From NCBI GenBank assembly GCA_965243135.1, contig OZ251539.1, forward strand, positions 3,616,001 through 3,680,000: 64,000 nt of DNA, written 5' to 3'. Positions 1,445 through 57,700 of the stretch are shown one piece after another; the stretch's first letter is position 1; each line of letters opens with the position of its first letter. Origin of the DNA: Alphaproteobacteria bacterium. Its GTDB lineage: Bacteria; Pseudomonadota; Alphaproteobacteria; MPNO01; UBA830. A program made the translations under genes and the position numbers. The notes under the pieces are model-generated. The model had not been told where the DNA came from. It saw only the letters and a program-made list of their open reading frames with translations, and made no database searches.

Positions 1445-1612
1445 CAGGTCCATGCACCGGATGGCCCGTCCGGTTTGTCCGGTTTTTTTTGAGCGCCTCC
1501 AAACCACGGAGGCGCGGCGGACGGAACGGCTGCAGGAGCCGAGAAGTTCGAAGGGACGTCGCACCCGCGCGTCCAGTCAAGGCGAATCGGGGCAGGCGTT
1601 TCGGAGCGCATG
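1445..1612 (+). mobile_element. Decayed IS481/ISNCY-like left end and transposase N-terminus relic
   Basis: GGTCCATG...GTCCGGTT followed by a stretch reading RRTERLQE..KFE..GVSER. Similar to 9036-9185 and 63813-64000. Confidence 0.55.
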
Positions 1613-1907
1613 TTCCTTCCCGGCGTTCCTTTCCAGCGTCGACGTTTTCTCGCGGGGCGTCCCTCTCGCCGGGGTCTTGCCCGGCGCGTCCGTTCGCCGC
1701 AGGGACGGCGGCGGACTGTCCGGCCTCCGCGGAAACGGCGGTCTTGAAAATTCGCGGTTTTCCGCGCCCGACGCGGGGAGATTCTCCGTCCTTCGAAGGC
1801 CGTCGGAATTTCAGGACGCCAGGAACGGCGGCCGCCCTCGACAAGGCGCAGGCCGAACCCGCGGCGCGAGCGGCGGCCTTTCGCGGAGGCGGCCGTCGGA
1901 AAGCCGT
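1613..1907. repeat. Conserved non-coding repeat downstream of AAA-nuclease copy 1
   Basis: Blocks GCGGAAACGGCGGTCTYGAAAATTCRCGGTTTTCCG and TTTCAGGACGCCAGGAACGGCGGCCGCCCTCG recur near 5803-5915 and 9308-9420; diverged version at 55583-55866. Confidence 0.9.
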
Positions 1908-4295
1908 TCAGGCGGCTTCGCAATCGAACCCGACGACGTTGCGTTCTTGGCGGCTGAACTCCACCCCGATCAGGTGGACCGAACGCCCGAGACGGCGGTA
2001 CTTGTCCGCGTAGCCCTTCTCCCGCAGCTGCGCGAGCGCGGTCCCCTCCCGCCCGCGCTCCACCACCTTGAACTCGAACAGGTAGACGCGCCCGCCGGCG
2101 CGGATCGCCATGTCGGCGCGCCCCAGGCTGCCGCTGTCCTCGGCCACCGGCTCGAAGCCCTCCATCAGGAAGCAGCTGTGGATGACGCTCGCGTAGTGGG
2201 CCTCGTACTTCGCGACGGGGCTGTTCATGTACCATTGGTGCGGGATGGCGGCGAAGACGCCGCGGAACAGGGTCCCGAGGCGCTCGAAGTCGTTCGCCTC
2301 CAGCAGTTCGCCCAGCCGCAGGCGCGCCGTCTTCTTGCGCGCCTCGACCGGGAGCAGTTCTTCCAGCAGGGCCTCGCCCAGGCTCTGGCGCACCTCGAGG
2401 TTCGGATAGTCCAGCCGGTAGCGCCCGTCCTCCTCGCCCGCGATGGGTAGAGTCGAGGACTGGCGCGTTAGCTTTAGGGTCCGGTGGATGTTCCGTCGCT
2501 TTCGCTCCGGGCCTCAGTCCGGCTCCCGTGGCCACGTTTCCAGTCCCCGCTCTCCGAACCGGACGTGCGGATTTCCCGCGCCTCCAGCAGGATCATGCGT
2601 CTCGCCCACGGATGGATTGTCAGCGTTCCCAAAAAACGGCCGGTTTTCCGGACCCGGGAGTTGCACCGTCTCCCATATTTTCCGCCTGTTCTCGCTTTCC
2701 AACCCGTCGCCGAGCCTGTTTACGCCTCGACGACCCCGGCCTCTCGACCGGGTTCCTTCGCTTGTGACGCTTCCGGGATCTCTGGCATGTAGTCGGTTGT
2801 TAGGCATAGCCAATCTCCGAGCCCTTCTCCCTTGCGGCGCCCTTCCTCGCCTGAGGCCCCTTTCCTCCGCCGGCGTTACCCGGCTTCTCCGGTACTACGG
2901 GCCTCTCCGCCACCCTGCCGGCCCGGCCTGCCCCTCGCGGGGTTCCGGTTGACTCGTGCGCGTCACCGACAGGGCTTCCCGTGTTGCTGCTTCCTTCATC
3001 TTCCATGCGTGCCGACATCACTACCCCGGCGGAAACGGTCGGTGCTTTTGTCGTTCTCTTCCCGACCGTCGGCGGCTTTCCCCTAACCTCAGGAGGGTCA
3101 GCTTCCGCATTGACCGTTTCGAGGCCTGCTCAATGTTCACTACTCGTTTCGGCCCGCGTGTTCGCTGAGCGGCCTTCGCCGCCCTTTCCCAGAGTGCTTC
3201 AGCCTACATCGTTACCTCCGTAAACCGCCCTGGCCGCTACCAACCGGAACGACAGTTGTTGGGTGGGATTCGCACCCACCAGAAGAAAGCGCCTTTCCAC
3301 GGCGCACTGAGGTAGCCGGTCTGGAACAGAAGCGCCTCGACATTGTCCACGTCGAAGGCCGAGAGCAGGCTCTCGCTGCCGATCATGCCGTCCAGGTCGG
3401 GCGTGGGCAGGTCGCGGCGCGTCAGCGTCTCGACCAGGAAGGTCGGCGTGCCGCTCAGGAACCAGTAGTTGCCGAACTTGCGTTTGTCGAACAGCAGCAG
3501 GATGTCGAACGGGTTGTAGATCTTTTCCGGTCCGAGCCAGTTGTAGCCGTTGTACCAGCGCCGGACCTCGTCCCGGTCCAGGCCCTCGAGTTCCGGGGCG
3601 AAGACCGCGTCCAGTTCGTCGTCCGTGTAGCCGCAGATATCGCCGTAGCGCTCGTCCAGCGTGATGTCGTTCAGGTTGTTCAGGCCAGAGAACAGGCCCG
3701 CTTTCGAGAATTTGCTCACCCCCGTCAGGAAAACGAAGCGGAGCTGCCTGTCGCAAGCCACCCCGTACAAGCTGCGCAGGAAATTGCGGTTGGCCAGCGC
3801 CAGTTCCCGGTCGCCGAGCGCGTCCAGAATCGGCTTGTCGTATTCGTCCACCAGAACGACCACCTTCTGCCCTGTGCGCTCGTGCAGCGTCCTTATCAGG
3901 CGCCGGAAACGGACCGCTGCCCCGGCGGGGCCCGGTTCGAGGCCGGCCTGCATCTCCGCCTCTTCCAGCTGCGCTTCCACGGTTTCCCGAACCCCGTCCG
4001 GAGTGTCGAAATCGCCCACGCCGCTGAAATCCAGCCGCACGACCGGGTGGCGCGCCGACCAGTCCCACTTGCCGTGCACGGCGAGGCCCCGGAACAACTC
4101 CTCGCTTCCCTCGAACAGCTCCTGCAGCGTGTCCACCAGCAGGCTCTTGCCGAACCGGCGCGGACGCGACAGGAAGTAATACTTGCCCCTCTCGACGAGG
4201 CGGCGCACATGGTCCGTCTTGTCGACGTAGTAGCAATCCATCCCCCGGATCTCCCGGAGGGAGGTCATGCCGATCGGAAGCATGCGTCTCGTCAT
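1908..4295 (-). pseudogene. AAA-ATPase-like/PD-(D/E)XK nuclease, copy 1, interrupted by a group II intron (exons 4295-3308 and 2446-1908)
   Basis: YYVDKT, SRPRRFGKS, LVDEYDKP, FLTGVSKF, then GRADM..YLFEFK. The joined exons are 988+539=1527 nt, in frame (GYL-T-IAGEEDG). Two small in-frame deletions relative to the paralogs. Confidence 0.9.
2447..3307 (-). mobile_element. ORF-less group II intron, 861 nt
   Basis: Starts GTGCGCC at 3307 and ends CTCGACTCTAC at 2447. DV-like GCGGGAAATCCGCACGTCCGGTTC. EBS1 TGAGGT (3086-3091) lies in a hairpin loop and is complementary to the exon end ACCTCA. No RT ORF. Confidence 0.9.
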
Positions 4296-4301
4296 CCGAA
4301 G

Positions 4302-4330
4302 AGAGTAGGCCGCAGTGCCGGAACCGTCAA
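4302..4330 (-). promoter_or_regulatory. Sigma70 promoter of AAA copy 1 (leaderless)
   Basis: TTGACG-17 bp-TACTCT-6 bp-ATG. Confidence 0.7.
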
Positions 4331-4549
4331 GGAAGAGACGGCCGCGAGCGTGATTGCGTTCGGGCCGCGGCGGGAATTCTCGCCTCCTTTCCAGCCGCCG
4401 CGACCGAGCGCGCTACGACAGGCTTTTCCTGAGCGACAGGGTAGTCAAGGCAACGACTGCGCCAAGCCGAAGCGGGGAAGCGTGTCGCGGCGGCCAGCCC
4501 CTTCGGTAACGATGCTGCCTCGATGCATCTTCCGCGCGGGGCGGACGCC

Positions 4550-5617
4550 TCAGCGGGAATCGCTGCGGAGCTTTATCAAATAACGGAAGAGATCCAGGTA
4601 GCGTTGTATGATGGCCTGTCTTGAGAACTCGGTTTCGAAACGCCGACGTCCCGATGTCGCCAAATTTCGACGGAGCTCCGGGTTTTCGATTAAACGAAAA
4701 ATCGACTTCGCCAGCGCTTCCGTGTCGTCGATCGGAGTTAGCAAACCATCCAACCCGTCCCTGATCAGCCACGCCGGTCCTTTCGAAGCGCACGCCACGA
4801 TCGGCGTTCGGGACGCCCATGATTCGACGATAACGATGCCGAAAGACTCATGCCTCGAAGGGTGAACAACAATATCGGCGCTCGCAATCAGATTCGAAAT
4901 ATCTTCGCGCCAACCGAGGAAACGAATCCTCGAACCTATCCCGATATCCCGCGCCTGTTTCACAAGGCGCGCTCGTTCATCTCCCTCTCCGGCAAGCAAG
5001 AGAAAAACGCCTTCAAGGAGTTTCATCGCATGTAGAAGGACATCGAACCTTTTTGCCGGAGCCAACCTGCCGGCGGCCAACAGCAAAGGGGCGTCCTCAG
5101 GAATATCGAGAGAGTCACGGGGGAGGGGGCTTTCATTTCCAGGTTCATTGATCGGAAAATTGGGAATAAAACTTATCCTTTCTCTAGGCCAGCCATTGTC
5201 GACCGCGAATTGAAGAATATCCGGAGTTACCGCAATCAAATGATCGGAATTATTGATTTGCCTCCTGACATTGTAGTACCCGTCGAGCCGCCCAACCCTC
5301 ACGGCGGAATGTTCGGCAAATCTGGATGCATGACCATTCATCACTGCAGCTCTTGTCTTCCATGAAAGTATGATATCCGGTCGGAATCTATCGATCTCCT
5401 TCGCAATATATGGAATGGATTTGAAATCGAACCACCGTCCCAACGGAAGGGTGACCGTTTCCACCTCAGCCGCTTGGAGCCGCGTAGTGAACGACGCGTG
5501 ATCGCGAACGAACGTACGCTGCGTTATCCCTTGTTTCTGGAAGCTTTCGGCGCATTTGACGAATAATTCTTGCACGCCGCCGAATGGATCTCCTGTCAGC
5601 GTTTGCAACAACCTCAT
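4550..5617 (-). CDS. GT4-type (GT-B fold) glycosyltransferase, copy A
   Basis: N-terminal GGVQ, GRLAPAK, FLGWREDI, PSRHESFGIVIVESWA. Visibly more AT-rich than its flanks. Confidence 0.9.
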   Translation of the reverse strand: MRLLQTLTGDPFGGVQELFVKCAESFQKQGITQRTFVRDHASFTTRLQAAEVETVTLPLGRWFDFKSIPYIAKEIDRFRPDIILSWKTRAAVMNGHASRFAEHSAVRVGRLDGYYNVRRQINNSDHLIAVTPDILQFAVDNGWPRERISFIPNFPINEPGNESPLPRDSLDIPEDAPLLLAAGRLAPAKRFDVLLHAMKLLEGVFLLLAGEGDERARLVKQARDIGIGSRIRFLGWREDISNLIASADIVVHPSRHESFGIVIVESWASRTPIVACASKGPAWLIRDGLDGLLTPIDDTEALAKSIFRLIENPELRRNLATSGRRRFETEFSRQAIIQRYLDLFRYLIKLRSDSR

Positions 5618-5715
5618 TTGGACGAACCCTGCATTTTATTATTCAAAATTACCTCGCTATAGAAGATAAAGTATCGGACAACCACCTGCGATATCGTTTG
5701 GCGTCGTTAACGGAC

Positions 5716-5997
5716 GACCGGTCCACATACCCCGTCCGGATTTAGAACGCTCCCAGACCAAGGAGGCGGCAGCGTCCGGGCGGATTGCCCGAGACGGTTT
5801 CCGCGGAAACGGCGGTCTCGAAAATTCGCGGTTTTCCGCTCTCGAAGCGGGGAAATTCTCCCTCCCTTGAAGGCCGTCGCCATTTCAGGACGCCAGGAAC
5901 GGCGGCCGCCCTCGGCGAGGCGCTGGCCGCCCCGAACATGCGACAGCCTTTCGCGGAGGCGGCTGCCGAAATGTCCGAACGGGACACTCGCCCGGCT
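5716..5997. repeat. IS-end relic plus AAA-downstream repeat, internally deleted version
   Basis: Matches 9036-9507 but lacks about 190 bp after CCAAGGAGGCGG. Confidence 0.85.
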
Positions 5998-7542
5998 TCA
6001 GGCGGCCTCGCAATCGAACCCGACGACGTTGCGCTCCTCGCGGCTGAACTCCACCCCGATCAGGTGCACCGAACGACCGAGATGGCGGTACTTGTCCGCG
6101 TAACCCTTCTCCCGCAGCTGCGCGAGCGCGACCCCCTCCCGCCCGTGCTCCACCACCTTGAACTCGAACAGGTAGACGCGCCCGTCGGCGCGGATCGCCA
6201 TGTCGGCGCGCCCCCGGCTGCCGCTGTCCTCCGCGACCGGCTCGAGGCCCTCCATCAGGAAGCAACTGTGGATGACGCTCGCGTAGTGGGCCTCGTACTT
6301 CGCGACCGGGCTGTTCATGTACCACTGGTGCGGAATGGCGGCGAAGACGCCGCGGAACAGGGTCCCGAGGCGCTCGAAGTCGTTCGCTTTCAGCAGTTCG
6401 CCCAGCCGCAGGTTCTCCGTTTCCTCGCGGGCCTCGTTCGGGAGCAACTCTCCCAGCAGGGCTTCGCCCAGGCTTTGGCGCACCTCGAGGTTCGGGTAGT
6501 CCAGCCTGTAACGTCTCCCGCCGTCCTCCTCGCCGGCGATGGTCAGGTAGCCGGTCTGGAACAGAAGCGCCTCGACCGAGATCCTGTCCACGTCGAAGGT
6601 CGAGAGCAGGCTCTCGCTGCCGATCATGCCGTCCAGGCGGGGAGTGGGCAGGTTGCGGCGCGTCAGCGTCTCGACCAGGAAGGTCGGCGTGCCGCTCAGG
6701 AACCAGTGGTTGCCGAACTCGCCCGTTTCGAAGAGAAGGAGGATGTCGAACGGGTTGTAGAGCTTGTCCGCGCCGCGCCAGTTGTAGCCGTTGTACCAGC
6801 GGCGGATCTCGTCCCGGTCCAGGCCCTCGAGTTCGGGGGCGAAGACCGCGTCCAGCTCCGAGTCCGTGTAGCCGCAGATGGAGCCGAAACGGGGGTCGAG
6901 GGTGACGTCGCGCAGGTTGTTCAGGCCCGAGAACAGGCCCGCCTGCGAGAACTTGCTCACCCCCGTCAGGAAAACGAAACGGAGATGCCTGTCGCAGGCC
7001 TTGATCACCCCGTACAGGCTGCGCAGGAAGTCGCGGTTGGCCAGCGCCAGCTCCCGGTCGCCGAGCGCGTCCAGAATCGGCTTGTCGTATTCGTCCACCA
7101 GAACGACCGCCTGCCGCCCGGTGCGCTCGTGCAGCGTCCTTATCAGGCGCCGGAAACGGATCGCCGCCCCGGCGGGGCCCGGTTCGAGGCCGGCTTGCAT
7201 CTCCGTCTCTTCCAGCTGCGCTTCCACGGTTTCCCGAGCCCCGTCCGGGCCGTCGAAACGGCCCACGCCGCTGAAATCCAGCCGCACGACCGGATGGCGC
7301 GCCGACCAGTCCCACCCGTCGTGCACGGCGAGGCCCCGGAACAACTCCTCGCTTCCTTCGAACAGCTCCTGCAGCGTGTCCACCAGCAGGCTCTTGCCGA
7401 ACCGGCGCGGACGCGACAGGAAATTGTACTTGCCCCTCTCGACGAGACGGCGCGCATGGTCCGTCTTGTCGACGTAGTAGCAGTCCATTTTCCGGATCTC
7501 CCGGAGGGAGGTCATGCCGGTCGGAAGCATGCGTTTCGTCAT
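5998..7542 (-). CDS. AAA-ATPase-like/PD-(D/E)XK nuclease, copy 2 (intact)
   Basis: 514 aa with RPRRFGKS, LVDEYDKP and GRADM..FEFK..ALAQLREKGYADKY. Confidence 0.93.
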   Translation of the reverse strand: MTKRMLPTGMTSLREIRKMDCYYVDKTDHARRLVERGKYNFLSRPRRFGKSLLVDTLQELFEGSEELFRGLAVHDGWDWSARHPVVRLDFSGVGRFDGPDGARETVEAQLEETEMQAGLEPGPAGAAIRFRRLIRTLHERTGRQAVVLVDEYDKPILDALGDRELALANRDFLRSLYGVIKACDRHLRFVFLTGVSKFSQAGLFSGLNNLRDVTLDPRFGSICGYTDSELDAVFAPELEGLDRDEIRRWYNGYNWRGADKLYNPFDILLLFETGEFGNHWFLSGTPTFLVETLTRRNLPTPRLDGMIGSESLLSTFDVDRISVEALLFQTGYLTIAGEEDGGRRYRLDYPNLEVRQSLGEALLGELLPNEAREETENLRLGELLKANDFERLGTLFRGVFAAIPHQWYMNSPVAKYEAHYASVIHSCFLMEGLEPVAEDSGSRGRADMAIRADGRVYLFEFKVVEHGREGVALAQLREKGYADKYRHLGRSVHLIGVEFSREERNVVGFDCEAA

Positions 7543-7548
7543 TCGAAG

Positions 7549-7577
7549 AGGATAGGCCGCCGCGCCGGAACCGTCAA
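7549..7577 (-). promoter_or_regulatory. Sigma70 promoter of AAA copy 2 (leaderless)
   Basis: TTGACG-17-TATCCT-6-ATG. Confidence 0.7.
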
Positions 7578-7869
7578 GGCGGCGGCCGCGAGCGTAATTT
7601 CCAGTTCATTTTTCCGGTTTTGCGATTCGATAACCGCCCCCGCCTCAAGGACCGGAAAACGCCCTGTCGCATGATTGCGTTCGGGCAACGGCGGGAATTC
7701 TCGCCTCCTGTCCAGCCGCCGCGACCGAGAATGCTACGACAGGCTTTCCCCGAGCGACAGGGTAGCCAAGGCAACGACTGCGCCAAACCGAAACCGGGAA
7801 GCGTGTCGCGGCGGCCAGTCCCACGGAAACGATGCCGCCTCGACGCATCTCTCGCGCAGGGCGGCCGCC

Positions 7870-8937
7870 TCAGCGGGAATTGCTTCGGAGCTTCATCAAA
7901 TCACGGAAGAGATCCAGGTAGCGTTGTATAATGGCCGACCTTGAGAACTCGGCTTCGAAACGCCGACGTCCCGATGCCGCCAAATTTCGACGGAGCTCCG
8001 GGTTTTCGATTAAACGAAAAATCGACTTCGCCAGCGCTTCCGCGTCGTCGATCGGAGTTAGCAAACCATCCAATCCGTCCCTGATCAGCCACGCCGGTCC
8101 TTTCGAAGCGCACGCCACGATCGGCGTTCGAGACGCCCATGATTCGACGATAACGATGCCGAAAGGCTCATGCCTCGAAGGGTGAACAACAATATCCGCG
8201 CTCGCAATCAGATTCGAAATATCTCCGCGCCAACCGAGGAAACGAACCCTCGAACCTATCCCGATATCCCGCGCCTGTTTCACAAGACGCGCTCGTTCAT
8301 CTCCCTCTCCGGCAAGCAAGAGAAAAACGCCTTCAAGGAGTTTCATCGCATGTAGAAGAACATCGAACCCTTTTGCCGGAGCCAACCTGCCGACGGCCAA
8401 CAGCAAAGGGGCGTCCTCAGGAATATCGAGAGAGTCACGGGGGAGGAGGATTTCATTTCCAGGTTCATTGATCGGAAAATTGGGAATAAAACTTATCCTT
8501 TCTGTAGGCCAGACATTGTCGACCGCGAATTGAAGAATATCCGGAGTTACCGCAATCAAATGATCGGAATTATTGATTTGCCTCCTGACATTGTAGTATC
8601 CGTCGAGCCGCCCAACCCTCACGGCGGAATGTTCGGCAAATCTGGATGCATGACCATTCATCACCGCAGCTCTTGTTTTCCATGAAAGTATGATATCCGG
8701 TCGGAATCTATCGATCTCCTTCGCAATGTATGGAATGGATTTGAAATCGAACCACCGTCCCAACGGAAGGGTGACCGTTTCCACCCCAGCCGCTTGGAGC
8801 CGCGTAGTGAACGACGCGTGATCGCGAACGAACGTACGCTGCGTTATCCTTTGTTTCTGGAAGATTTCGGCGCATTTGACGAATAATTCTTGCACGCCTC
8901 CGAATGGATCTCCTGTCAGCGTTTGCAACAACCTCAT
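7870..8937 (-). CDS. GT4-type glycosyltransferase, copy B
   Basis: Near-identical to 4550-5617, with canonical VGRLAPAKGFD and PSRHEPFG. Confidence 0.9.
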   Translation of the reverse strand: MRLLQTLTGDPFGGVQELFVKCAEIFQKQRITQRTFVRDHASFTTRLQAAGVETVTLPLGRWFDFKSIPYIAKEIDRFRPDIILSWKTRAAVMNGHASRFAEHSAVRVGRLDGYYNVRRQINNSDHLIAVTPDILQFAVDNVWPTERISFIPNFPINEPGNEILLPRDSLDIPEDAPLLLAVGRLAPAKGFDVLLHAMKLLEGVFLLLAGEGDERARLVKQARDIGIGSRVRFLGWRGDISNLIASADIVVHPSRHEPFGIVIVESWASRTPIVACASKGPAWLIRDGLDGLLTPIDDAEALAKSIFRLIENPELRRNLAASGRRRFEAEFSRSAIIQRYLDLFRDLMKLRSNSR

Positions 8938-9035
8938 TTGGACAAACCCTGCATTTTATTTTTCAAAATTACCTCGCTATAGAAGATAAAGTATCGGACA
9001 ACGACCTGCGATATCGTTTGGCGTCGTTAACGGAC

Positions 9036-9507
9036 GACCGGTCCACATGCCCCGTCCGGATTTAGAACGCTCCCAGACCAAGGAGGCGGACGGAGCGGCT
9101 GCAGGGACCGAGGAAGTTCGAAGCGGCGTCGCGCCCGTCACCGGGTCAAGGCGAATCGGGGCAGGCGTTTCGAAGCGCATGTTCCTTCCCGGCCTCCCTT
9201 TTCAGCGTCGACGTTTTCTCGCGGAGCGTCCCTCTCGCCGGAGTCTTGCCCGGCGCGTCCGTTCGCCGCAGGAGCGGCGTCCGGGCGGATTGCCCGAGAC
9301 GGTTTCTGCGGAAACGGCGGTCTCGAAAATTCACGGTTTTCCGAGCCCAAAGCAGGGAAATTCTCCCTCCCTTGAAGGCCGTCGCCATTTCAGGACGCCA
9401 GGAACGGCGGCCGCCCTCGGCGAGGCGCTGGCCGCCCCGAACATGCGACGGCCTTTCGCGGAGGCGGCTGCCGAAATGTCCGAACGGAACATCGAACTCG
9501 TCCGGCT
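9036..9507. repeat. IS-end relic plus AAA-downstream repeat, full version
   Basis: Colinear with 1445-1907. Confidence 0.88.
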
Positions 9508-11046
9508 TCAGGCGGCCTCGCAATCGAACCCGACGACATTGCGCTCTTCGCGGCTGAACTCCACCCCGATCAGGTGGACCGAACGCCCGAGGTGGCGGTA
9601 CTTGTCCGCGTAGCCCTTCTCCCGCAGCTGCGCGAGCGCGGTCCCTTCCCGCCCGCGCTCCACCACCTTGAACTCGAACAGGTAGACGCGCCCGCCGGCG
9701 CGGATCGCCATGTCGGCGCGCCCCCGGCTGCCGCTGTCCTCGGCCACCGGCTCGAAGCCCTCCATCAGGAAGCAACTGTGGATGACGCTCGCGTAGTGGG
9801 CCTCGTACTTCGCGACCGGGCTGTTCATGTACCACTGGTGCGGGATGGCGGCGAAGACGCCGCGGAACAGGGTTTCGAGGCGCTTGAAGTCGTTCGCCTC
9901 CAGCAATTCGCCCAGCCGCAGGTTCTCCGTCTCCTCGCGGGCCTCGACCGGGAGCAGTTCTTCCAGCAGGGCCTCGCCCAGGCTCTGGCGCACCTCGAGG
10001 TTCGGGTAGCCCAGCCGGTAGCGCCCGTCCTCCTCGCCGACGATGGTGAGGTAGCCGGTCTGGAACAGAAGCGCCTCGACCGAGATTCTGTCCACGTCGA
10101 AGGTCGAGAGCAGGCTCTCGCTGCCGATCATGCCGTCCAGGCGGGGAGTGGGCAGGTTGCGGCGCACCAGCGTCTCGACCAGAAAGGTCGGCGTGCCGCT
10201 CTCGAACCAGTAGTTGCCGAACCTGCGCTCGGCGAACAGCAGCAGGAGGCCGAATGGATTGTAGAGCTTCTCCGGCCCGCGCCAGTTGTAGCCGTTGTAC
10301 CAGCGGCGGACCTCGTCCCGGTCCAGGCCCTCCAGTTCCGGGGCGAAGACCGCGTCCAGCTCGTCGTCGGTGCAGCCGCAGATGTCCGAGAACTCCGGCA
10401 CCAGCGTGATGTCGCGCAGGTTGTTCAGGCCAGAGAACAGGCCCGCCTTCGAGAATTTGCTCACCCCCGTCAGGAAAACGAAACGGAGCTGCCTGTCGCA
10501 GGCCTTGATCACCCCGTACAGGCTGCGCAGGAAGTCGCGGTTGGCCAGCGCCAGCTCCCGGTCGCCGAGCGCGTCCAGGATCGGCTTGTCGTATTCGTCC
10601 ACCAGGACGACCGTTCGCTGCCCGGTGCGCTCGTGCAGCGTCCTTATCAGGCGCCGGAAACGAACCGCCGCCCCGGCGGGACCCGGTTCGAGGCCGGCCT
10701 GCATCTCCGTCTCTTCCAGCTGCGCTTCCACGGTTTCCCGAACTCCGTCCGGGCCGTCGAAACGGCCCACGCCGCTGAAATCCAGCCGCACGACCGGGTG
10801 GCGCGCCGACCAGTCCCACCTGCCGTGCACGGCGAGGCCCCGGAACAACTCCTCGCTTCCTTCGAACAGCTCCTGCAGCGTGTCCACCAGCAGGGTCTTG
10901 CCGAACCGGCGCGGACGCGACAGGAAATAGTACTTGCCCATCTCGACCAGGCGGCGCGCATGGTCCGTCTTGTCGACGTAGTAGCAGTCCATCCCCCGAA
11001 TCTCCCGGAGGGAGGAAAAGCCGATCGGAAGCATGCGTTTCGTCAT
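9508..11046 (-). CDS. AAA-ATPase-like/PD-(D/E)XK nuclease, copy 3 (intact)
   Basis: 512 aa, same motifs (RPRRFGKT). Confidence 0.93.
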   Translation of the reverse strand: MTKRMLPIGFSSLREIRGMDCYYVDKTDHARRLVEMGKYYFLSRPRRFGKTLLVDTLQELFEGSEELFRGLAVHGRWDWSARHPVVRLDFSGVGRFDGPDGVRETVEAQLEETEMQAGLEPGPAGAAVRFRRLIRTLHERTGQRTVVLVDEYDKPILDALGDRELALANRDFLRSLYGVIKACDRQLRFVFLTGVSKFSKAGLFSGLNNLRDITLVPEFSDICGCTDDELDAVFAPELEGLDRDEVRRWYNGYNWRGPEKLYNPFGLLLLFAERRFGNYWFESGTPTFLVETLVRRNLPTPRLDGMIGSESLLSTFDVDRISVEALLFQTGYLTIVGEEDGRYRLGYPNLEVRQSLGEALLEELLPVEAREETENLRLGELLEANDFKRLETLFRGVFAAIPHQWYMNSPVAKYEAHYASVIHSCFLMEGFEPVAEDSGSRGRADMAIRAGGRVYLFEFKVVERGREGTALAQLREKGYADKYRHLGRSVHLIGVEFSREERNVVGFDCEAA

Positions 11047-11052
11047 TCGAAG

Positions 11053-34809: not shown

Positions 34810-34838
34810 TTGACAATTCCGCCGCGGCGGCCTACTCT
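34810..34838 (+). promoter_or_regulatory. Sigma70 promoter of AAA copy 4 (leaderless)
   Basis: TTGACA-17-TACTCT-6-ATG(34845). Confidence 0.78.
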
Positions 34839-34844
34839 CTTCGA

Positions 34845-36378
34845 ATGACGAAGCGCATGCTGCCGACCGGCATGACGTCCCTCCGGAAAATCCGGACGAG
34901 AGGCTGCTACTACGTCGACAAGACGGACCATCTGCGCCGCCTCGTCGAAGGGGGCGACTACTATTTCCTGTCGCGTCCGCGCCGGTTCGGCAAGACCCTG
35001 CTGGTGGACACGCTCCAGAAGCTGTTCGAGGGAAGCGAGGAACTGTTCCGGGGCCTCGCCATACACGGCAAGTGGGACTGGTCGGCGCGCCGTCGTGCGG
35101 CTGGATTTCAGCGGCGTGGGCCGTTTCGATACCCCGGACGGGGTCCGGGGAACCGTGGAAAGGCAACTGGCGGCGACGGAGAGGCGCGCCGGCCTCGAAC
35201 CGGGTCCCGCCGGGGCGGCGGTCCGTTTCCACGAGTTGATCGAGGCCCTGCACGAGCGCACCGGGCGGCGGGCGGTCGTGCTGGTCGACGAATACGACAA
35301 GCCGATCCTGGACGCGCTCGGCGACCGGGAACTGGCGCTGGCCAACCGCGACTTTCTGCGCAGCCTGTACGGGGTGATCAAGGCTTCCGACGAGCAACTC
35401 CGTTTCGTTTTCCTGACGGGGGTGAGCAAGTTCTCGCAGGCGGGCCTGTTCTCGGGCCTGAACAACCTGATCGACGTCACGCTGGAGCCGGAGTTCTCGG
35501 ACATCTGCGGCTACACGGACGACGAGCTGGACACGGTCTTCGCCCCGGAACTCGAGGGCCTGGACCGGGACGAGGTCCGCCGCTGGTACAACGGCTATAA
35601 CTGGCGCGGGCCGGAGAGGGTCTACAACCCGTTCGGCCTGCTGCTGCTGTTTCGGCGGCGCGAGTTCCGCCCGTACTGGTTCCAGAGCGGCACGCCGACC
35701 TTCCTGGTCGAGACGCTGGCGCGCCGCGACCTGCCCACCCCGGACCTGGACGGCATGACCGGCAGCGAGAGCCTGCTGTCGTCCGTCGACGTGGACAATA
35801 TCTCGATCGAGGCGCTTCTGTTCCAGACCGGCTACCTGACCATCGCCGGCGAGGAGGACGGGCGCTACAGGCTGGGCTACCCGAACCTCGAGGTGCGCCG
35901 GAGCCTGGGCGAGGCTTTGCTGGAAGAACTGCTCCCGGCCGAGGCCCGCGAGGAGACGGAGAACCTGCGGCTGGGCGAACTGCTAGAAGCGAACGACTTC
36001 GAGCGCCTCGGGACCCTGTTCCGCGGCATCTTCGCCGCCATCCCGCACCAGTGGTACGCGACCAGCCCGGTCGCGAAATACGAGGCCCACTACGCGAGCG
36101 TCATCCACAGCTGCTTCCTGATGGAGGGCGTCGAGCCGGTCGCGGAGGACAGCGGCAGCCGGGGGCGCGCCGACATGGCGATCCGCGTCGGCGGGCGCGT
36201 CTACCTGTTCGAGTTCAAGGTGGTGGAGCGCGGACGGGAGGGAACCGCGATCGCGCAGTTGCGGGAGAAGGGCTATGCGGACAAGTACCGCCATCTCGGG
36301 CATTCGGTCCACCTGATCGGTGTGGAGTTCAGCCGGGCGGAGCGCAACGTCGTCGGGTTCGATTACGAAACCGCCTGA
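34845..36378 (+). pseudogene. AAA-ATPase-like/PD-(D/E)XK nuclease, copy 4, frameshifted
   Basis: MTKRMLPTG.. from 34845. A 5-nt deletion near 35094 (GCGCGCCGTC[CGGTC]GTGCGG relative to copy 5) shifts the frame; the remainder is open to 36378. Confidence 0.9.
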
Positions 36379-36490
36379 AGCCGGACGAGTTCGACGTCCC
36401 GTTCGGACATTTCGACAGCCGCCTCCACGAAAGAACGCCGTCCGCGACGCGGGTTCGGCTTGCGCTTTGTCGAAGGCGGCAGCCGCTTCC
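36379..36490. repeat. AAA-downstream repeat (short, inverted relative to the other copies)
   Basis: Its reverse complement matches 9455-9507 proximally and 1830-1890 distally. Confidence 0.8.
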
Positions 36491-44006: not shown

Positions 44007-44027
44007 TGAGATATGCGGGCTAAGCTC

Positions 44028-47852: not shown

Positions 47853-49645
47853 GCTCCAAGTCTTACGAAATCGTCGACCATACCTACGACGTCGTGGTGC
47901 TCGGCGCCGGCGGCGCCGGCCTTCGCGCCACTTTCGGCATGGCGCTGAAGAACCTCCGCACGGCCTGCATCACCAAGGTGTTCCCGACCCGAAGCCACAC
48001 CGTCGCCGCGCAGGGAGGGATTTCCGCGGCGCTCGGAAACATGAGCGAGGACGACTGGCGCTGGCATTTCTACGACACGGTGAAGGGGGCCGACTGGCTC
48101 GGCGACCAGGACGCGATCGAGTACATGTGCCGCGAGGCCATTCCCGCGGTTCTGGAACTCGAGCATTACGGCGTGCCGTTTTCGCGGACCGAAAAGGGCG
48201 AGATCTATCAGCGTCCTTTCGGCGGCATGACCACCAGATACGGCGACGGTCCGCCGGCGCAACGCACGGCCGCCGCCGCCGACCGGACGGGACACGCCAT
48301 TCTCCACACCCTGTACCAACAATCCCTGAAGCACCGCGCCGAGTTCTTCGTGGAATACTTCGGGCTCGACCTCCTCATGGACGACGATGGGGTTTGCCGC
48401 GGCGTGATGGCGTGGAACCTCGACGACGGAACCATCCACCGTTTCAGGGCCGGCCTGGTCGTGGTCGCGACCGGCGGCTACGGGCGCTGCTACTTCTCGT
48501 GCACCGGCGCCCACACCCAGACCGGGGACGGCAACGCGATGGCGCTGCGCGCCGGCCTGCCGTGCGAAGACATGGAGTTCATCCAGTTCCACCCCACGGG
48601 AATCTACGGGGCGGGCTGCCTCATCACTGAAGGCGTGCGGGGCGAAGGAGGATACCTGACCAATTCGGAAGGCGAGCGCTTCATGGAACGCTACGCGCCG
48701 AGCGTGAAGGACCTCGCCTCGCGCGACGTCGTGAGCCGCGCGATGACCATGGAAATCCGCGAGGGCCGCGGCGTCGGCGCCGACAGCGACCACATCCACC
48801 TTCACATCGAGCATCTCGACCCGGATGTCATCGGCGAGCGGCTGCCGGGAATTTCCGAGACCGCCCGCATCTTTGCGGGCGTCGACGTCACCAGGGAGCC
48901 GATTCCCGTGCTCCCCACCGTGCATTACAACATGGGGGGCATCCCCACCACCTACCGTGGCGAAATGGTGAAGCCGGCGGACGGAAACCCGGAGGAGATC
49001 CAGCCCGGCCTCATGGCGATCGGCGAGGCGGCTTGCGTTTCGGTTCACGGCGCCAACCGCCTGGGATCGAATTCGCTGCTCGACCTCGTCGTTTTCGGCC
49101 GCGCCGCCGCCGAGCGGGCCGCGGAGATGGTCGATCCCGGCGGAAAACAGCCCGAACTTCCGAGGGACGCCGGCGAAGCGGCGCTGGATCGCTTCGACGC
49201 GCGCCGCCACGCTTCCGGCTCCGTTCCCACGGCGGAACTGCGGCTCGGGATGCAGCGCGCCATGCAATCGCACTGCGCCGTGTTCCGAACCGAGGAACTG
49301 ATGGTGGAAGGCCGGCGCAAGCTTTCGGAACTCTGGTCGAAGAACGACGACGTGAAGGTCGCGGACAAGTCGTTGATCTGGAATTCCGATTTGGCGGAGA
49401 CTCTGGAATACGACAATCTGCTGGCGCAGGCGATCGTCAGCCTCGATTCCGCGATCAACCGCAAGGAGAGCCGCGGCGGGCACGCGCGCGAAGATTTTCC
49501 CGACCGCGACGACGACAACTGGATGAAGCACACCTACGTGTGGCTCAACGAGGACGGAACCACCCGCATCGAGTACCGCCCGGTCCATGGCGAGACGATG
49601 AGCGGCGACGTGGAAGCGGTTCCGCCGAAGGAACGGGTGTACTGA
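47849..49645 (+). CDS. sdhA: Succinate dehydrogenase flavoprotein
   Basis: [33 protein letters not shown]. Confidence 0.98.
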
Positions 49646-53563: not shown

Positions 53564-53827
53564 GCGGCCTTCCGGCGAAGTGAGGCCGCGACCGCGCTGC
53601 AAGCGTCACCGCGAGACCGAACGTCCAGACGTTCTTCCCAGAGTCCAGTTTCGCTCGCGAAAGGCCGCGAATATCGTTGGATCTATATCTTAACTCACCG
53701 CGATTCTTCAACGCCGCCCGAACGGGGGCGCTTGCGCCGCGCCGTTTTCATGTCGATCGCCCGTCGACAGCCTTTCTCGGAGGCGGTTGCCGAAACGCGC
53801 GGACGGGGCCTCGTCCGGCTCCCGGCT

Positions 53828-55360
53828 TCAGACGGTCTCGAACTCGAACCCGACGATGTTGCGTTCTTCCCGGCCGAACTCCACCCCGATCAGGTGGACC
53901 GGCACGTCCGAACGCCGGTACTTGTCCGCGTAGCCGCGCTCCCGAATCTGCGCCAGCGCCCGCCCCTTCCCGTCCGCGACCTTGAATTCGAACAGGTAGA
54001 CGTTGCCGTTGTACAGGACCGCGAGGTCCGAGCGGCCGCGCGCCGTGCTCTCCTCCGCGCGGACGTCCATCCCCGCGGCCACGAAGTGCGAATAGAACAC
54101 GCTCGCGTAGTGCGCCCCCGCCATGCCCGTGTTCGCGTACCACTCGTTCGGGATGCTCGCCAGGAACGCCCGGAACAGATTCTCAAGGCCCGCGAAGTCG
54201 TTCGCCCGCATCAGGCGGCGCAACTCCCGGCTCTCCGCCGCGACCGCGACGTCGGGCGCCATCGCCCTCAGCAGAAGCGCGTTCAGGCTGCGCTTCACCT
54301 CCTGGTTCGGGTAGTCCAGCTGGTAGAAGCGCGTGTCCTCGTCCTGCTCCTCGCCGACGATGGTCAGGTAACCGGTCTGGAACAGCAGCGTCTCGACGGG
54401 AATGCTGTCGACGTCGATGGCCGACAGCAGCGCGTCGTCCGCAACCAAGCTCTCCAGGGCCGGCGGCGCGAACCGGCGCCGCGACAGAAGGTCGACGAGA
54501 AAGGTCGGCGTGCCGGTCTCGAACCAGTGCGCCTCGAACTGGCGACGCCGGAAAAGCAGCAGAATGTCGTGCGGGTTGTAGACCTTGTCCGCGCCGCGCC
54601 AGTTGTAGCCGTTGTACCAGCGCTGAACTTCCTTCCGGTCCAGGCCCTCGAGTTCCGGGGCGAAGACCGCGTCCAGTTCCGCGTCCGTGTAGCCGCAAAT
54701 GGCCGAGAACTCCGGCTCCAGCGTGATGTCGATCAGGTTGTTCAGGCCCGAGAACAGACCCGCCTGCGAGAACTTGCTAACTCCCGTCAGAAAAACGAGA
54801 CGGAGATGCCTGTCGCAGTCCTTGATCGCCCCGTACAGGCTGCGCAGGAAGTCGCGGTTGGCCCGCGCCAATTCCCGGTCGCCGAGCGCGTCCAGGACCG
54901 GCTTGTCGTATTCGTCCACCAGTACGACCGCCCGCTGCCCGGTGCGCTCGTGCAGGGCCTCGATCAATTCCCCGAAACGGTTCGACGCCTCGACGGGATC
55001 CGGTTCGAGGCCGGCGCGCCTCTCCGCCGCCGCCAGCTGCCTTTCCACGGTTATCCGAACCCCGTCCGGGACGACGAAATTGCCCCTGCTGAAACTGATC
55101 CGCACGACCGGACGGCGCGCCGACCAGTCCCACCCGCCGTGCACGGCGAGGCCCCGGAACAGCTCCTCGCTGCCCTCGAACAGTTCCTGCAGCGTGTCCA
55201 CCAGAAGGGTCTTGCCGAACCGGCGCGGACGCGACAGGAAATAGTACTTGCCCCTCTCGACGAGGCGGCGCACATGGTCCGTCTTGTCGACGTAGTAGCA
55301 GTCCATCCCCCGGATCTCCCGGAGGGAGGAAAAGCCGATCGGAAGCATGCGTTTCGCCAT
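53828..55360 (-). CDS. AAA-ATPase-like/PD-(D/E)XK nuclease, copy 5 (divergent C-terminal half)
   Basis: 510 aa from MAKRMLP. GRSDL..YLFEFK. Promoter TTGACG-17-TACTCT at 55395-55367. Confidence 0.92.
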   Translation of the reverse strand: MAKRMLPIGFSSLREIRGMDCYYVDKTDHVRRLVERGKYYFLSRPRRFGKTLLVDTLQELFEGSEELFRGLAVHGGWDWSARRPVVRISFSRGNFVVPDGVRITVERQLAAAERRAGLEPDPVEASNRFGELIEALHERTGQRAVVLVDEYDKPVLDALGDRELARANRDFLRSLYGAIKDCDRHLRLVFLTGVSKFSQAGLFSGLNNLIDITLEPEFSAICGYTDAELDAVFAPELEGLDRKEVQRWYNGYNWRGADKVYNPHDILLLFRRRQFEAHWFETGTPTFLVDLLSRRRFAPPALESLVADDALLSAIDVDSIPVETLLFQTGYLTIVGEEQDEDTRFYQLDYPNQEVKRSLNALLLRAMAPDVAVAAESRELRRLMRANDFAGLENLFRAFLASIPNEWYANTGMAGAHYASVFYSHFVAAGMDVRAEESTARGRSDLAVLYNGNVYLFEFKVADGKGRALAQIRERGYADKYRRSDVPVHLIGVEFGREERNIVGFEFETV

Positions 55361-55866
55361 CCGAAGAGAGTAGGCCGCCGCGCCGGAGCCGTCAAGGAGG
55401 AGGCGTTTGCGCTGCGCCGTTTTTGGCCGGTTGTCGTCCGTTCGACGCCCCGCGAGGCCGCCCGTCGGCAGGTCGGCACGCGCAGGCGGGCGGCGGCGAA
55501 GCAGGACCGTTGCTCCGGCGCCGCACGGCAAACTCGGGGCGAACCAGGCCATGCGGTCGCGGCGCGGGCTGGGGCGGAATCTGCGAAAACGGCGTTCTCG
55601 GCGTGGAAAATTCGCAGTTTTCCACGCCCGAAGCGAGGCAATTCTCCGCCATGCTGTCGGCGTTTCAGGACGTCGGGAACGGCGCGGGAGAGCCTGCAGG
55701 CGGACGCCGCTGCCGGGCCGGGTTCCCGCCCGCCCCCTTGGCGGCGCGTGCAGTCAAGCCGCCGGCGCGCAAGGCGGCGACCCGGCCGCCGTCTTCGACG
55801 AAGCGCAAACCGAACTTGCGTCGCGGGCGGCGTTCTTTCGCGGAGGCGGCCGTGTCGGGAAGCCGT
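55361..55866. repeat. Inter-copy repeat: upstream repeat of copy 5 fused to downstream repeat of copy 6
   Basis: 55361-55640 matches 57406-57685; 55583-55866 resembles 1725-1907. Confidence 0.85.
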
Positions 55867-57405
55867 TCAGGCGGCCTCGCAATCGAAGCCGACGACGTTG
55901 CGCTCCTCGCGGCTGAACTCCACCCCGATCAGGTGGACCGAATGTCCGAGACGGCGATACTTGTCCGCGTAGCCCTTCTCACGCAACTGCGCGATCGCGG
56001 TCCCCTCCCGCCCGCGCTCCACCACCTTGAACTCGAACAGGTAGACGCGCCCGCCGGCGCGGATCGCCATGTCGGCGCGCCCCAGGCTGCCGCTGTCCTC
56101 GGCAATCGGCTCGAGGCCCTCCATCAGGAAGCAACTGTGGATGACGCTCGCGTAGTGGGCCTCGTACTTCGCGACAGGGCTGTTCATGTACCACTGGTGC
56201 GGGATGGCGGCGAAGACGCCGCGGAACAGGGTCCCGAGGCGCTCGAAGTCGTTCGCCTCCAGCAGTTCGCCCAGCCGCAGGCGCTTCGTCTTCTTGCGCG
56301 CCTCGACCGGGAGCAGTTCTCCCAGCAGGGCCTCGCCCAGGCTCCGGCGCACCTCGAGGTTCGGATAGTCCAACCGGTAGTGCCCGTCCTCCTCGCCGAC
56401 GATGGTGAGGTAGCCGGTCTGGAACAGAAGCGCTTCGATCGAGATATCGTCCACGTCGAAGGTCGAGAGCAGGCTCTCGCTGCCGATCATGCCGTCCAGG
56501 TCGGGAGTGGGCAGGTCGCGGCGCGTCAGCGTCTCGACCAGGAAGGTCGGCGTGCCGCTCTGGAACCAGTAGTTGCCGAACCTGCGCTCGGCGAGCAGCA
56601 GCAGAATGCCGAACGGGTTGTAGAGCTTCTCCGGCCCGCGCCAGTTGTAGCCGTTGTACCAGCGGCGGATCTCGTCCCGGTCCAGGCCCTCGAGTTCCGG
56701 GGCGAAGACCGCGTCCAGCTCGTCGTCCGTGTAGCCGCAGATGTCCGAGAACTGCGGCGCCAGCGTGATGTCGCGGAGGTTGTTCAGGCCCGAGAACAGG
56801 CCCGCCTGCGAAAACTTGCTCACCCCCGTCAGGAAAACGAAACGGAGATGCCTGTCGCAGGCCTTGATCACTCCGTACAGGCTGCGCAGGAAGCTGCGGT
56901 TGGCCAGCGCCAGATCCCGGTCGCCGAGCGCGTCCAGGATCGGCTTGTCGTATTCGTCCACCAGCACGACCGTCCGCTGTCCGGTGCGCTCGTGCAGCGT
57001 CCTTATCAGGCGCCGGAAACGGACCGCCGCCCCGGCGGGACCCGGTTCGAGGCCGGCCTGCATCTCCGTCTCTTCCAGCTGCGCTTCTACGGTTTCCCGA
57101 ACCCCGTCCGGAGTGTCGAAATCGCCCACGCCGCTGAAATCCAGCCGCACGACTGGATGGCGCGCCGACCAGTCCCACTTGCCGTGCACGGCGAGGCCTC
57201 GGAACAGCTCCTCGCTTCCCTCGAACAGCTCCTGCAGCGTGTCCACCAGCAGGGTCTTGCCGAACCGGCGCGGCCGCGACAGGAAGTAGTAATCTCCTCC
57301 TTCGACGAGGCGGCGCAGATGGTCCGTCTTGTCGACGTAGTAGCAGTCTCTCGTCCGGATTTTCCGGAGGGAGGTCAAGCCGATCGGAAGCATGCGTTTC
57401 GCCAT
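55867..57405 (-). CDS. AAA-ATPase-like/PD-(D/E)XK nuclease, copy 6 (intact)
   Basis: 512 aa. Promoter TTGACG-17-TACTCT at 57440-57412. Confidence 0.93.
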   Translation of the reverse strand: MAKRMLPIGLTSLRKIRTRDCYYVDKTDHLRRLVEGGDYYFLSRPRRFGKTLLVDTLQELFEGSEELFRGLAVHGKWDWSARHPVVRLDFSGVGDFDTPDGVRETVEAQLEETEMQAGLEPGPAGAAVRFRRLIRTLHERTGQRTVVLVDEYDKPILDALGDRDLALANRSFLRSLYGVIKACDRHLRFVFLTGVSKFSQAGLFSGLNNLRDITLAPQFSDICGYTDDELDAVFAPELEGLDRDEIRRWYNGYNWRGPEKLYNPFGILLLLAERRFGNYWFQSGTPTFLVETLTRRDLPTPDLDGMIGSESLLSTFDVDDISIEALLFQTGYLTIVGEEDGHYRLDYPNLEVRRSLGEALLGELLPVEARKKTKRLRLGELLEANDFERLGTLFRGVFAAIPHQWYMNSPVAKYEAHYASVIHSCFLMEGLEPIAEDSGSLGRADMAIRAGGRVYLFEFKVVERGREGTAIAQLREKGYADKYRRLGHSVHLIGVEFSREERNVVGFDCEAA

Positions 57406-57700
57406 CGTAAGAGAGTAGGCCGCCGAGCCGGAGCCGTCAAGGAAGGGGCGCTTGGAGGCGTTTGCGCTGCACCGTTTTTTGCCGGCTGCCGTCCGTTCGA
57501 CGCCTCGCGAGGCCGCCTGTCGGCAGGTCGGCACGCGCAGGCGGGCGTCGGCGGAGCAGGACCGTTGCTCCGGCGCCGTGCGGCAAACTCGGGGCGAACC
57601 AGGCCATGCGGTCGCAGAGCGGGCTGGGATCTGCGAAAACGGCGTTCTCGGCGTAGAAAATTCGCAGTTTCCCACGCCCGAGCATGAAAATTCCGCGCCC
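57406..57700. repeat. Upstream repeat of copy 6
   Basis: Direct repeat of 55361-55650. Confidence 0.88.

Follow-up and report, generated by a model that had tools for sequence, protein, structure and literature searches.

DUF1703 units in the window and along the chromosome

The window analysed here, a 64,000-nt stretch of the chromosome of an Alphaproteobacteria bacterium (G000:C1:3616001-3680000, in a genome that forms a single contig of 6.10 Mb), holds seven places occupied by genes or gene remnants of the DUF1703 family, the predicted products of which combine an AAA+ NTPase with a PD-(D/E)XK nuclease. An initial annotation made from the letters of this stretch had described six full-length copies and one relic; all seven places were recovered with Pfam and tblastn, but only four of the six copies (c2, c3, c5, and c6) are intact, c1 being split by an intron and c4 frameshifted (table 1). 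The four intact open reading frames (ORFs), all on the minus strand, match both PF09820 (195.6-198.6 bits, for a gathering cut-off of 26.1) and PF08011 (55.9-61.1 bits, for a cut-off of 25.5), and c5 shares 69-70% amino acid (aa) identity with c3. As that annotation had noticed, one copy, c4, interrupts the rpoN-hpf pair, the same promoter precedes every full copy (the pattern TTGAC-N17/18-TANNNT-N6-ATG is matched six times in the window, exactly at the six copies, and not once in shuffled sequences), and a shared repeat follows each of them: the 13-mer GCCTCCGCGAAAG, with zero to two mismatches, lies 17-43 nt past all six stop codons and also beside the relic.

Table 1. Positions of DUF1703 copies and associated features (window coordinates unless a contig is named)
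Feature	Position	Strand	Details	Basis
c1	1908..4295	-	DUF1703 gene split by an intron; exon 1 4295-3308, exon 2 2446-1908	tblastn, insertion mapping
Group II intron in c1	2447..3307	-	861 nt, ORF-less, sense; 5' GTGCG, 3' CTAC	Rfam, insertion mapping
c1 promoter-like box	4293..4330	-	abuts the ATG	pattern search
GT4 glycosyltransferase, copy a	4550..5617	-	within a tandemly duplicated 3.4-kb block	Pfam, alignment
c2	5998..7542	-	intact, 514 aa; promoter box 7540-7577; 3' motif 5948-5960	Pfam, pattern search
GT4 glycosyltransferase, copy b	7870..8937	-	94.7% aa identity to copy a	Pfam, alignment
c3	9508..11046	-	intact, 512 aa; promoter box 11044-11081; 3' motif 9453-9465	Pfam, pattern search
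rpoN	33421-34743		flanks c4	
REP-like element	~34766-34806		just upstream of c4	
c4 unit	34810..36433	+	between rpoN and hpf; promoter box 34810-34847; 3' motif 36421-36433	Pfam, pattern search
c4 ORF	34845-36378	+	frame broken by a 5-nt deletion after 35091	Pfam, lesion mapping
REP-like element	~36651-36693		~276 nt downstream of c4	
hpf	36700-37392		flanks c4	
Relic	~44554-44748	-	last ~60 C-terminal codons and 3' motif	tblastn, repeat scan, motif search
c5	53828..55360	-	intact, 510 aa, subfamily B; promoter box 55358-55395; 3' motif 53772-53784	
c6	55867..57405	-	intact, 512 aa; promoter box 57403-57440; 3' motif 55835-55847	
~100-nt repeat ending GTTACTGACA	~63799-63910	-		
Other intron-bearing loci	G000:C1 1934092-1934958, 4119187-4120047, 1150704-1151571, 2889578-2890374, 2665261-2668831			

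With c3 as the query, a tblastn search of the whole genome returned 239 segments in 170 raw loci, merged to 162, which makes the family far bigger than the 6+1 copies sampled by the window. These 162 loci comprise 98 intact full-length copies, 33 copies that are full-span but broken, and 31 fragments; they total 220,944 nt, or 3.6% of the genome, and the GC content of the cassettes (66.1%) lies close to that of the genome (65.0%), which marks their composition as native. The loci are grouped in 79 clusters (gaps of at most 5 kb), including 45 singletons, 19 pairs, and arrays of up to 15 copies, in both orientations, and 12 of the 15 clusters with at least three members are purely head-to-tail. 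Most paralogues show 63-92% aa identity to c3, and the intact copies belong mainly to two subfamilies, A (50 copies) and B (46 copies). Copies differ from one another by 2-17% and have distinct flanks; the closest pair among the 98 reaches 97.7% nucleotide identity and the median nearest neighbour 93.8%. DUF1703 is a known family, and the best reading of these counts is an extreme expansion of it that is specific to this genome. Two adjacent DUF1703 genes (G000:C1 1565062-1566603 and 1567211-1568752) stand apart, being 43-45% identical to the rest and having different flanks; they form a second, unexpanded lineage in the same genome.

To define the ends of the unit, the 98 intact copies, each taken with 700-nt flanks, were all compared with one another. 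Almost every pair loses its similarity 39-46 nt upstream of the ATG (quartiles 35, 39, and 46), irrespective of the DNA farther out, so that the copies do share a common 5' boundary, and on the other side its limit in colinear alignment lies 1-23 nt past the stop codon. The conserved upstream stretch, CTTGACGGCTCCGGCGCGGCGGCCTAC(C/T)CTCTTCGA-ATG, contains a promoter-like box, TTGACG-N17-TAC(C/T)CT, ending 6 nt before the ATG; the looser pattern TTGAYN-N17/18-TANNNT-N6-ATG is found in 90 of the 98 intact copies, the end of the -10-like box always being 6 nt from the ATG, and none of the 98 has a Shine-Dalgarno-like word (GGAG, GAGG, or AGGA) at positions -16 to -5. Since the usual gap between a -10 box and the transcription start is 5-8 nt, transcription would be expected to start on the A of the ATG or on a neighbouring nucleotide, and the DUF1703 mRNAs are probably leaderless. 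Public gene calls for paralogues (e.g., P0001, P0007, and P0009) often begin 16-20 codons inside the gene (491-497 aa vs. 512 aa), probably because no ribosome-binding site precedes the true ATG, and the upstream ATG is supported by the PF09820 profile match, which begins at residue 7. As for the 3' motif, GCCTCCGCGAAAG is found with at most one mismatch 17-56 nt past the stop codon in 60 of the 98 intact copies; of the 63 places in the genome where it occurs exactly, 62 are no more than 120 nt 3' of a DUF1703 gene on the same strand, and with one mismatch it marks 86 of 146 3' ends. It is probably functional, because it is kept across subfamilies whose adjacent coding DNA shows a synonymous divergence (dS) of 0.6-0.8. 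A conserved hairpin or terminator was considered for this motif and rejected, as its commonest variant cannot pair (by eye; some variants can) and no T-run comes after it. Taken together, these features would make each gene a self-sufficient expression unit composed of a sigma-70-like promoter, gene, and 3' motif.

From their lesions, 5-nt deletions appear to be the main cause of death of cassette copies. Among the broken copies that cover the full span, 30 were examined in this respect and carry 42 exact 5-nt deletions at 12 recurrent sites (codons 34, 83, 118, 131, 150-151, 156-157, 209-211, 353, 378, 383-384, 419-421, and 422-424; 14 sites when the pentamers lost at codons 156-157 and 209-211, which are not the same, are treated separately), besides five indels of 1-2 nt, three 7-nt deletions, and one 10-nt deletion. 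At codon 83, ATCCG or ATCCT is lost in 12 copies of both subfamilies, including c4. In the other repeats of the genome, with the cassettes masked, deletions with clean flanks numbered 200 (1 nt), 29 (2 nt), 21 (3 nt), 7 (4 nt), 388 (5 nt), 334 (6 nt), 48 (7 nt), and 1 (8 nt), the direction of loss being certain only for the cassettes because there the reading frame shows it. AT stands at one end of 207 of the 317 distinct 5-nt events, against 6.7% expected, with AT-C-N-G as the oriented consensus; some 60-65% of the excess 5-, 6-, and 7-nt deletions start or end with AT (~6.5% expected), and about half of the events have no flanking microhomology. Different copies may owe an identical lesion to common descent and conversion, which would not account for the bias in length and sequence. 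An Argonaute or Ku protein as the source of the deletions was dismissed, since no Piwi and no Ku match was found in the genome. If real, this 5-7-nt signature would be a new mutational process, and a repeat-directed deletion, if true, would be a bacterial counterpart of repeat-induced mutation in fungi. The same spectrum was not seen in the cassette loci fetched from two relatives, G004 and G030, which are small samples. In a further relative, G002, all four copies (loci L037, L040, L043, and L046) share a 7-nt deletion at codons 81-83, the very spot of the commonest 5-nt deletion here.

Predicted fold and activity

The protein of ~512 aa is predicted to consist of a STAND/ORC-like AAA+ NTPase, a winged-helix/helical middle part, and a C-terminal PD-(D/E)XK nuclease. 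The motifs by which PMC1913061 defines the family are all present, namely the non-canonical Walker A RPRRFGK(S/T), Walker B DEYD, and the nuclease signature E...D...ExK...Q. Among 96 paralogues, RPRRFGK and DEYD are conserved together with nuclease residues E436, D445, E458, and K460; among 95 diverse homologues, R44, P45, F48, G49, K50, D150, and E436 are invariant, and E151, Y152, D153, D445, E458, K460, and Q473 are at least 90% conserved. DUF1703 is large, with 16,899 cluster representatives (50% identity) matched at E <=0.001, and it also occurs, though rarely, on plasmids (67 of 72,556 records) and in 29 unannotated fragments labelled Bacteriophage sp. In the available portions of two papers its function is described as unknown (PMC1913061; PMC6387759), and a table, in the part of the article at hand, lists PF09820 under RADAR RdrA, PARIS, and Old-tin (PMC10952713).

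A search of the Protein Data Bank (PDB) by sequence gave chance-level matches only, and the comparisons below are based on an AlphaFold (AF2) model (pLDDT 93.7, pTM 0.92) used in a structure search. Its best match, over residues 4-358, is to the archaeal AAA+ ATPases SSO1545/PAB2304 (2fna and 2qen; Z 15.9, 281 residues aligned), which are assigned to Pfam PF01637 in the accessible text of PMC1913061, but which have no nuclease domain and a function that is likewise unknown. Other NTPase matches are plant NLR resistosomes (Z 13.4-14.0), Avs3 (11.8), BrxC (11.7), CED-4 (11.6), MalT, ORC/Cdc6 (Z ~11), TnsC (10.2), and MuB (9.3), the ORC/Cdc6 score being so close to the STAND scores that the clade within AAA+ is not separated by structure match. 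With Avs3 (PDB 8dgc) and the NTPases of NLRs and apoptosomes, the protein shares an NTPase-winged-helix module that superposes (Z 11.8-14) and, in one polypeptide, a PD-(D/E)XK-type effector, an analogy that suggests a nuclease activation driven by oligomerisation, as in Avs proteins; it differs from them in that its nuclease is C-terminal, so that the domain order is reversed, in its small size, and in the lack of both a TPR, LRR, or WD sensor and a PADLOC match. Residues 298-512 superpose on the PD-(D/E)XK domains of Wolbachia CidB and CinB (Z 9.6-10.2); these proteins, however, have tandem nuclease domains without an ATPase, and the common fold does not show a common role. As in Tn7, where TnsC (AAA+) and TnsA (PD-(D/E)XK) act jointly on DNA, an AAA+ ATPase is associated with a restriction-like nuclease, but here a TnsB-like DDE transposase, transposon ends, and near-identical copies are all missing, and the STAND/ORC neighbours score higher than TnsC and MuB.

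The most variable segment among paralogues, residues 91-135 (mean entropy 0.9-1.2 bits, nonsynonymous divergence [dN] 0.30), forms in the model a helix pair between strands 85-89 and 145-150 (beta2-beta3). Initiator-type AAA+ proteins have an insertion at the corresponding position, which contacts DNA. Overall, dN/dS amounts to 0.44, against 0.13 for the nuclease core of subfamily A. From the modelled fold and the variation among paralogues, the protein would most likely act as an NTP-driven switch that would oligomerise on a nucleic-acid or foreign cue and turn its nuclease on, with the diversity presumably supplied by the variable helix pair and by the variable C-terminal half. The joining of a STAND/ORC-like NTPase to a PD-(D/E)XK nuclease suggests a function in conflict or defence.

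Multiplication of the family

In the window, the succession c1-GT4-c2-GT4-c3 (1908-11081) is a tandem duplication of a 3.4-kb block made of a DUF1703 gene and a glycosyltransferase gene (95.8% nucleotide identity), which is the exact product expected of unequal crossing-over between two flanking copies. Over residues 1-90 and 136-260, dS between subfamilies A and B is 0.23, for 0.18-0.26 within subfamilies; over residues 261-450, it rises to 0.51-0.76 between them against 0.11-0.15 within A (0.76 and 0.15 over residues 361-450). The N-terminal half of the gene is homogenised across subfamilies, in a manner typical of gene conversion, and the paralogues are mosaics; the classes of upstream flank also cut across the ORF subfamilies. 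In a tree that took in the 98 intact copies, 10 of the 19-21 copies found in G004, and 7 from G030, 96 of the 98 form one clade (support 1.0) apart from the sequences of the two relatives. The family would thus have grown within this genome from one founder, mainly by tandem duplication and by unequal crossing-over from copy to copy, with gene conversion then acting among the paralogues. We therefore favour, with a probability of about 0.55, an immune-type DUF1703 family with a probable role in conflict or defence, expanded in-genome by duplication, unequal crossing-over, and gene conversion. Duplication and recombination fit best because no recombinase, no long inverted repeats, and no near-identical copies are found, whereas head-to-tail arrays, a block duplication, and a homogenised N-terminal half are. 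Among the three readings offered by the initial annotation, that of an amplified defence family fits best, given the STAND/ORC-like NTPase and PD-(D/E)XK fold and the conserved catalytic motifs.

Expansions of DUF1703 with recombination among paralogues have been reported in Cardinium (PMC6387759, in the part available). The genes of Cardinium cCpun resemble those described here in their two domains, their Walker A/B and nuclease motifs, their multiple copies, the recombination of paralogues, and the independence of lineage expansions (PMC6387759, and PMC1913061 for the family, from the accessible portions of both). However, there are ~160 loci here against 25 full paralogues there, and the paralogues mostly share 63-92% aa identity with c3, against a mean of 39% among paralogues in Cardinium; a separate promoter for each copy, placed right against the ATG, a family-specific motif on the 3' side, extended head-to-tail arrays, invasion by introns, and a peculiar decay, all seen here, go unmentioned in the available portion of PMC6387759.

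Upstream of about -48, the DNA preceding the units falls into a few classes, each itself repeated. One is a spacer of ~640 nt that is common in arrays and complete before ~12 copies. Another, of ~55 nt (an A-run plus GGCGCAGCGCAAACGCC; 127 matches genome-wide), resembles repetitive extragenic palindromic (REP) elements: it reads as a hairpin followed by a T-run on the opposite strand, and it often stands directly before TTGAC boxes, including that of hpf. Twenty-two cassettes have it within 120 nt upstream, directly before the -35 box and always in one orientation, 13 have it behind the gene, and 8, c4 and c5 among them, have it on both sides; 92 further elements are situated elsewhere in the genome. 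As hpf, too, has a REP-like element in front of its TTGAC, the features around c4 follow one another as rpoN-REP-cassette-REP-hpf. The ~100-nt element ending GTTACTGACA yields 38 blastn segments in ~30 places and abuts 15 cassette promoters, in either orientation; one inverted pair of it (L018 554-627 and 4423-4490) encloses a 3.9-kb element that carries a DUF5131 gene together with three ORFs lacking any Pfam match. This inverted-repeat-like ~100-nt element (TGTCAGTAACAG...) was tried as the transposon ends of the cassette and rejected, for it never flanks a cassette as an inverted pair. Dispersal of the units would probably occur through ordinary homologous recombination at such short flanking repeats (REP-like elements and spacer modules), REP-flanked units possibly looping out and then re-entering at REP-like sites.

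We sought PF09820 in 30 related genomes and obtained 23 matches in G004, 9 in G002 (mostly two per broken copy), 9 in G030, and 1 in G003; the remaining 26, several of them incomplete genomes, gave none. The copies of G004 and G030 share flanks of their own, unlike those described here, and those of G004 have a GGAAAGG word before the ATG and no abutting promoter, which indicates that each genome amplified, or homogenised, its own unit. The four genomes of the same genus are distant (RpoN identity of 49-53%, no RpoN match in G001), a scan of genome and metagenome contigs with RpoN returned nothing closer than 51% identity, and a query of the relatives with capD gave no useful match. In G003, lptB-rpoN-hpf-ptsN are contiguous, which agrees with the idea of an interrupted pair, but relatives at such a distance do not provide true empty sites. 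G002 has rpoN followed by a ptsN-like gene, without an hpf match, and G004 has 1.7 kb of unrelated DNA between rpoN and ptsN. A DUF1703 gene does occur in this neighbourhood of G004 (L008, G004:C1:230000-243000, 8756-10286), ~1.7 kb behind the ptsN-like gene and not between rpoN and hpf.

Independent DNA bears on the same locus, as part of the rpoN-hpf stretch is present in runs from seven studies, some of which are labelled sponge metagenome. The contigs of four runs from four studies, compared over window positions 28001-48000, cover the unique flanks with 0-3% differences; those of run X1 end at 34852 and resume at 36393, that is, at the edges of the cassette, and one contig of run X3 passes from rpoN through the promoter to 34874 with zero differences. 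These breaks and this contig argue against a mis-assembled repeat and place the cassette at rpoN-hpf in at least one further data set. Of the 80 contig joints, 15 are listed, none of which leaves out precisely the c4 cassette, and no contig spans the cassette. One contig of run X7 departs from the window sequence at 34754, just after rpoN, and continues for 83 letters.

Several observations weigh against an in-genome expansion of an immune-type family. The 79 clusters, 45 of which are singletons, are not accounted for by tandem duplication alone, and a sharp common stop of similarity ~39-46 nt upstream would also be expected of a discrete mobile unit. A strict sigma-70 scan upstream of c3 called no promoter, the box escaping it because TAC(C/T)CT matches TATAAT at only 3 of 6 positions. 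PADLOC returned 0 families for c3 and c5 at E <=0.01, no NCBIfam model matches the protein, and a C-terminal sensor repeat (TPR, LRR, or WD40) is absent, the model comprising an NTPase, a helical/winged-helix part, and a nuclease, with only two Pfam domains; finally, a dN/dS of 0.44 looks relaxed, and part of the family may be drifting. The scatter of loci could instead come from a passive cassette moved in trans, whose REP- or spacer-flanked units would circularise and re-enter REP-like sites via RecA or via an enzyme encoded elsewhere (REP-associated or another recombinase). The eight units with same-orientation REP-like elements on both sides, the 22 with such an element directly before the -35 box, the 92 elements elsewhere as possible targets, the layout around c4, which is the one expected after integration at a REP site, and the second, ~100-nt repeat abutting 15 promoters all speak for this scenario, which we nonetheless hold to be unlikely: both flanks are present in only 8 of ~131 full-span units, no matching recombinase was identified, the distance of the relatives (RpoN identity of 49-53%) leaves no filled/empty site pair to compare, and REP-like elements may simply gather in intergenic DNA. 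A self-mobilising selfish cassette, whose own AAA+/PD-(D/E)XK protein would cut DNA and let repair copy the unit to new or paralogous sites, in the manner of a homing or TnsA/TnsC-type machine without a separate transposase, seems rather improbable in turn. The sharp 5' boundary with a unit-specific 3' motif, the clusters in both orientations, the likeness of the NTPase to the transposition ATPases TnsC and MuB (TnsA itself is a PD-(D/E)XK enzyme), the presence of the family on plasmids, and the wide variation of copy number among relatives are in its favour. Yet active elements usually leave identical copies, when the closest intact pair here is 97.7% identical and the median nearest neighbour 93.8%; homing accounts for spread from allele to allele, not to new loci; the STAND/ORC matches outscore TnsC and MuB; and the unit has no DDE, tyrosine, serine, or HUH domain, its only Pfam matches being PF09820 and PF08011. 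As the initial annotation had stated, no recombinase is in view, for neither a scan of the 34 other window ORFs nor another scan of 12 ORFs yielded a transposase or integrase family, and a window-wide repeat scan found no inverted repeats of at least 40 nt at the unit ends, shorter repeats and target duplications not having been searched systematically. The ~2-kb unit proposed in that annotation is thus borne out as regards promoter, gene, 3' motif, common 5' boundary, and huge multiplication, but not as a transposing selfish element, the marks of which are missing and against which the arrays, the tandem block, and the homogenisation also count. Bolder still, and in our opinion very doubtful, would be a new recombinase-free mobile cassette, spreading via REP-like repeats or breaks made by its own nuclease, together with a repeat-directed 5-7-nt inactivation starting from AT that would hold the family and insertion sequences in check.

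With regard to function, the protein could have a cellular role outside defence, for instance in DNA repair, in the control of replication, or as a symbiosis-related nuclease effector, neutral duplication having raised the copy number. A symbiosis-related effector role has been proposed for Cardinium, and the function of the family is given as unknown, in the portions available of the two papers already cited (PMC6387759; PMC1913061); the dN/dS of 0.44, the 64 dead loci out of 162, and the lack of a match in defence databases are in line with such a role. Keeping 98 intact copies with conserved catalytic residues and private promoters by drift would however be costly, and the neighbours of the fold are immune NTPases and conflict nucleases, hence our view that this alternative has little chance of being right, slightly less even than the self-mobilising cassette. 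It is highly improbable, lastly, that the repeats or their lesions were made by mis-assembly or polishing errors. The odd deletion spectrum, not seen in the G004 and G030 loci, and the inability of short-read contigs to span a copy could be taken in that sense, but the copies diverge by 2-17%, their flanks are distinct, contigs of four runs from as many studies are interrupted at the same edges (34852 and 36393), with near-identical flanks in runs labelled sponge metagenome, and relatives and many independent metagenome assemblies carry multiple copies; moreover, a sequence context that has suffered a deletion in some copies is preserved in most, and copies that are already broken accumulate lesions, which makes the deletions themselves an unlikely artefact.

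The 98 intact close copies, each with a minimal promoter, amount to a natural experiment on DUF1703, a family that expands in scattered lineages and has no assigned function. Constant and variable segments are now mapped on the protein (the beta2-beta3 helix pair and the C-terminal half vary), and dozens of variants are available for tests of defence or conflict. The repeat family also reshapes the chromosome: a neighbouring glycosyltransferase, a cell-envelope gene, was gained in tandem, rpoN and hpf were split, and many homing sites are offered to introns. The parts that could prove new are the deletion signature and the spread without a recombinase.

Group II introns and neighbouring genes

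The insert of c1, at TACCTCA|CCATCG (codon ~333), matches Rfam RF02003 (group-II-D1D4-4) with 75.1 bits, for a gathering score of 49, while the model of domains V/VI, RF00029, has no match in it at E <=1. Both ends of the insert agree with the group II consensus (5' GUGYG, 3' AY). The same ORF-less form occupies the identical site in five copies, a sixth copy has a 3.6-kb form there, and two further copies retain only the 3' junction of the intron. The five ORF-less introns are 98.7-100% identical, when their host exons are 89-92% identical; an intron more alike than its hosts implies either recent, separate entry into the paralogues or spread by short conversion tracts, and the sequences point to recent homing in trans into a multicopy target. 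Longer relatives of the intron (1.9-2.1 kb) elsewhere in the genome carry a reverse transcriptase-like ORF, apparently broken in the one that was translated. Since the exons of c1 have no lesion besides the intron, this copy may still function if the intron splices.

Elsewhere in the window, the relic is truncated by an island of low GC content (~50%; 44001-46700) carrying a gene of NsnA/PD-T4-2_A-like type with a GmrSD_N domain (44754-45968; NsnA/GmrSD-like). Contigs of runs X3 and X7 have a depth of zero or nearly so (at most 0.21) across 45343-46676, and the island may for this reason be strain-specific. A second low-GC stretch (51-57%; 20000-24600) harbors an AAA_15/AAA_21 (OLD/Gabija-type) ATPase (21069-22670) and a D12-class N6-adenine DNA methyltransferase (23426-24556), and an SF1 helicase-like ORF (AAA_11/AAA_12) lies at 13838-17035.

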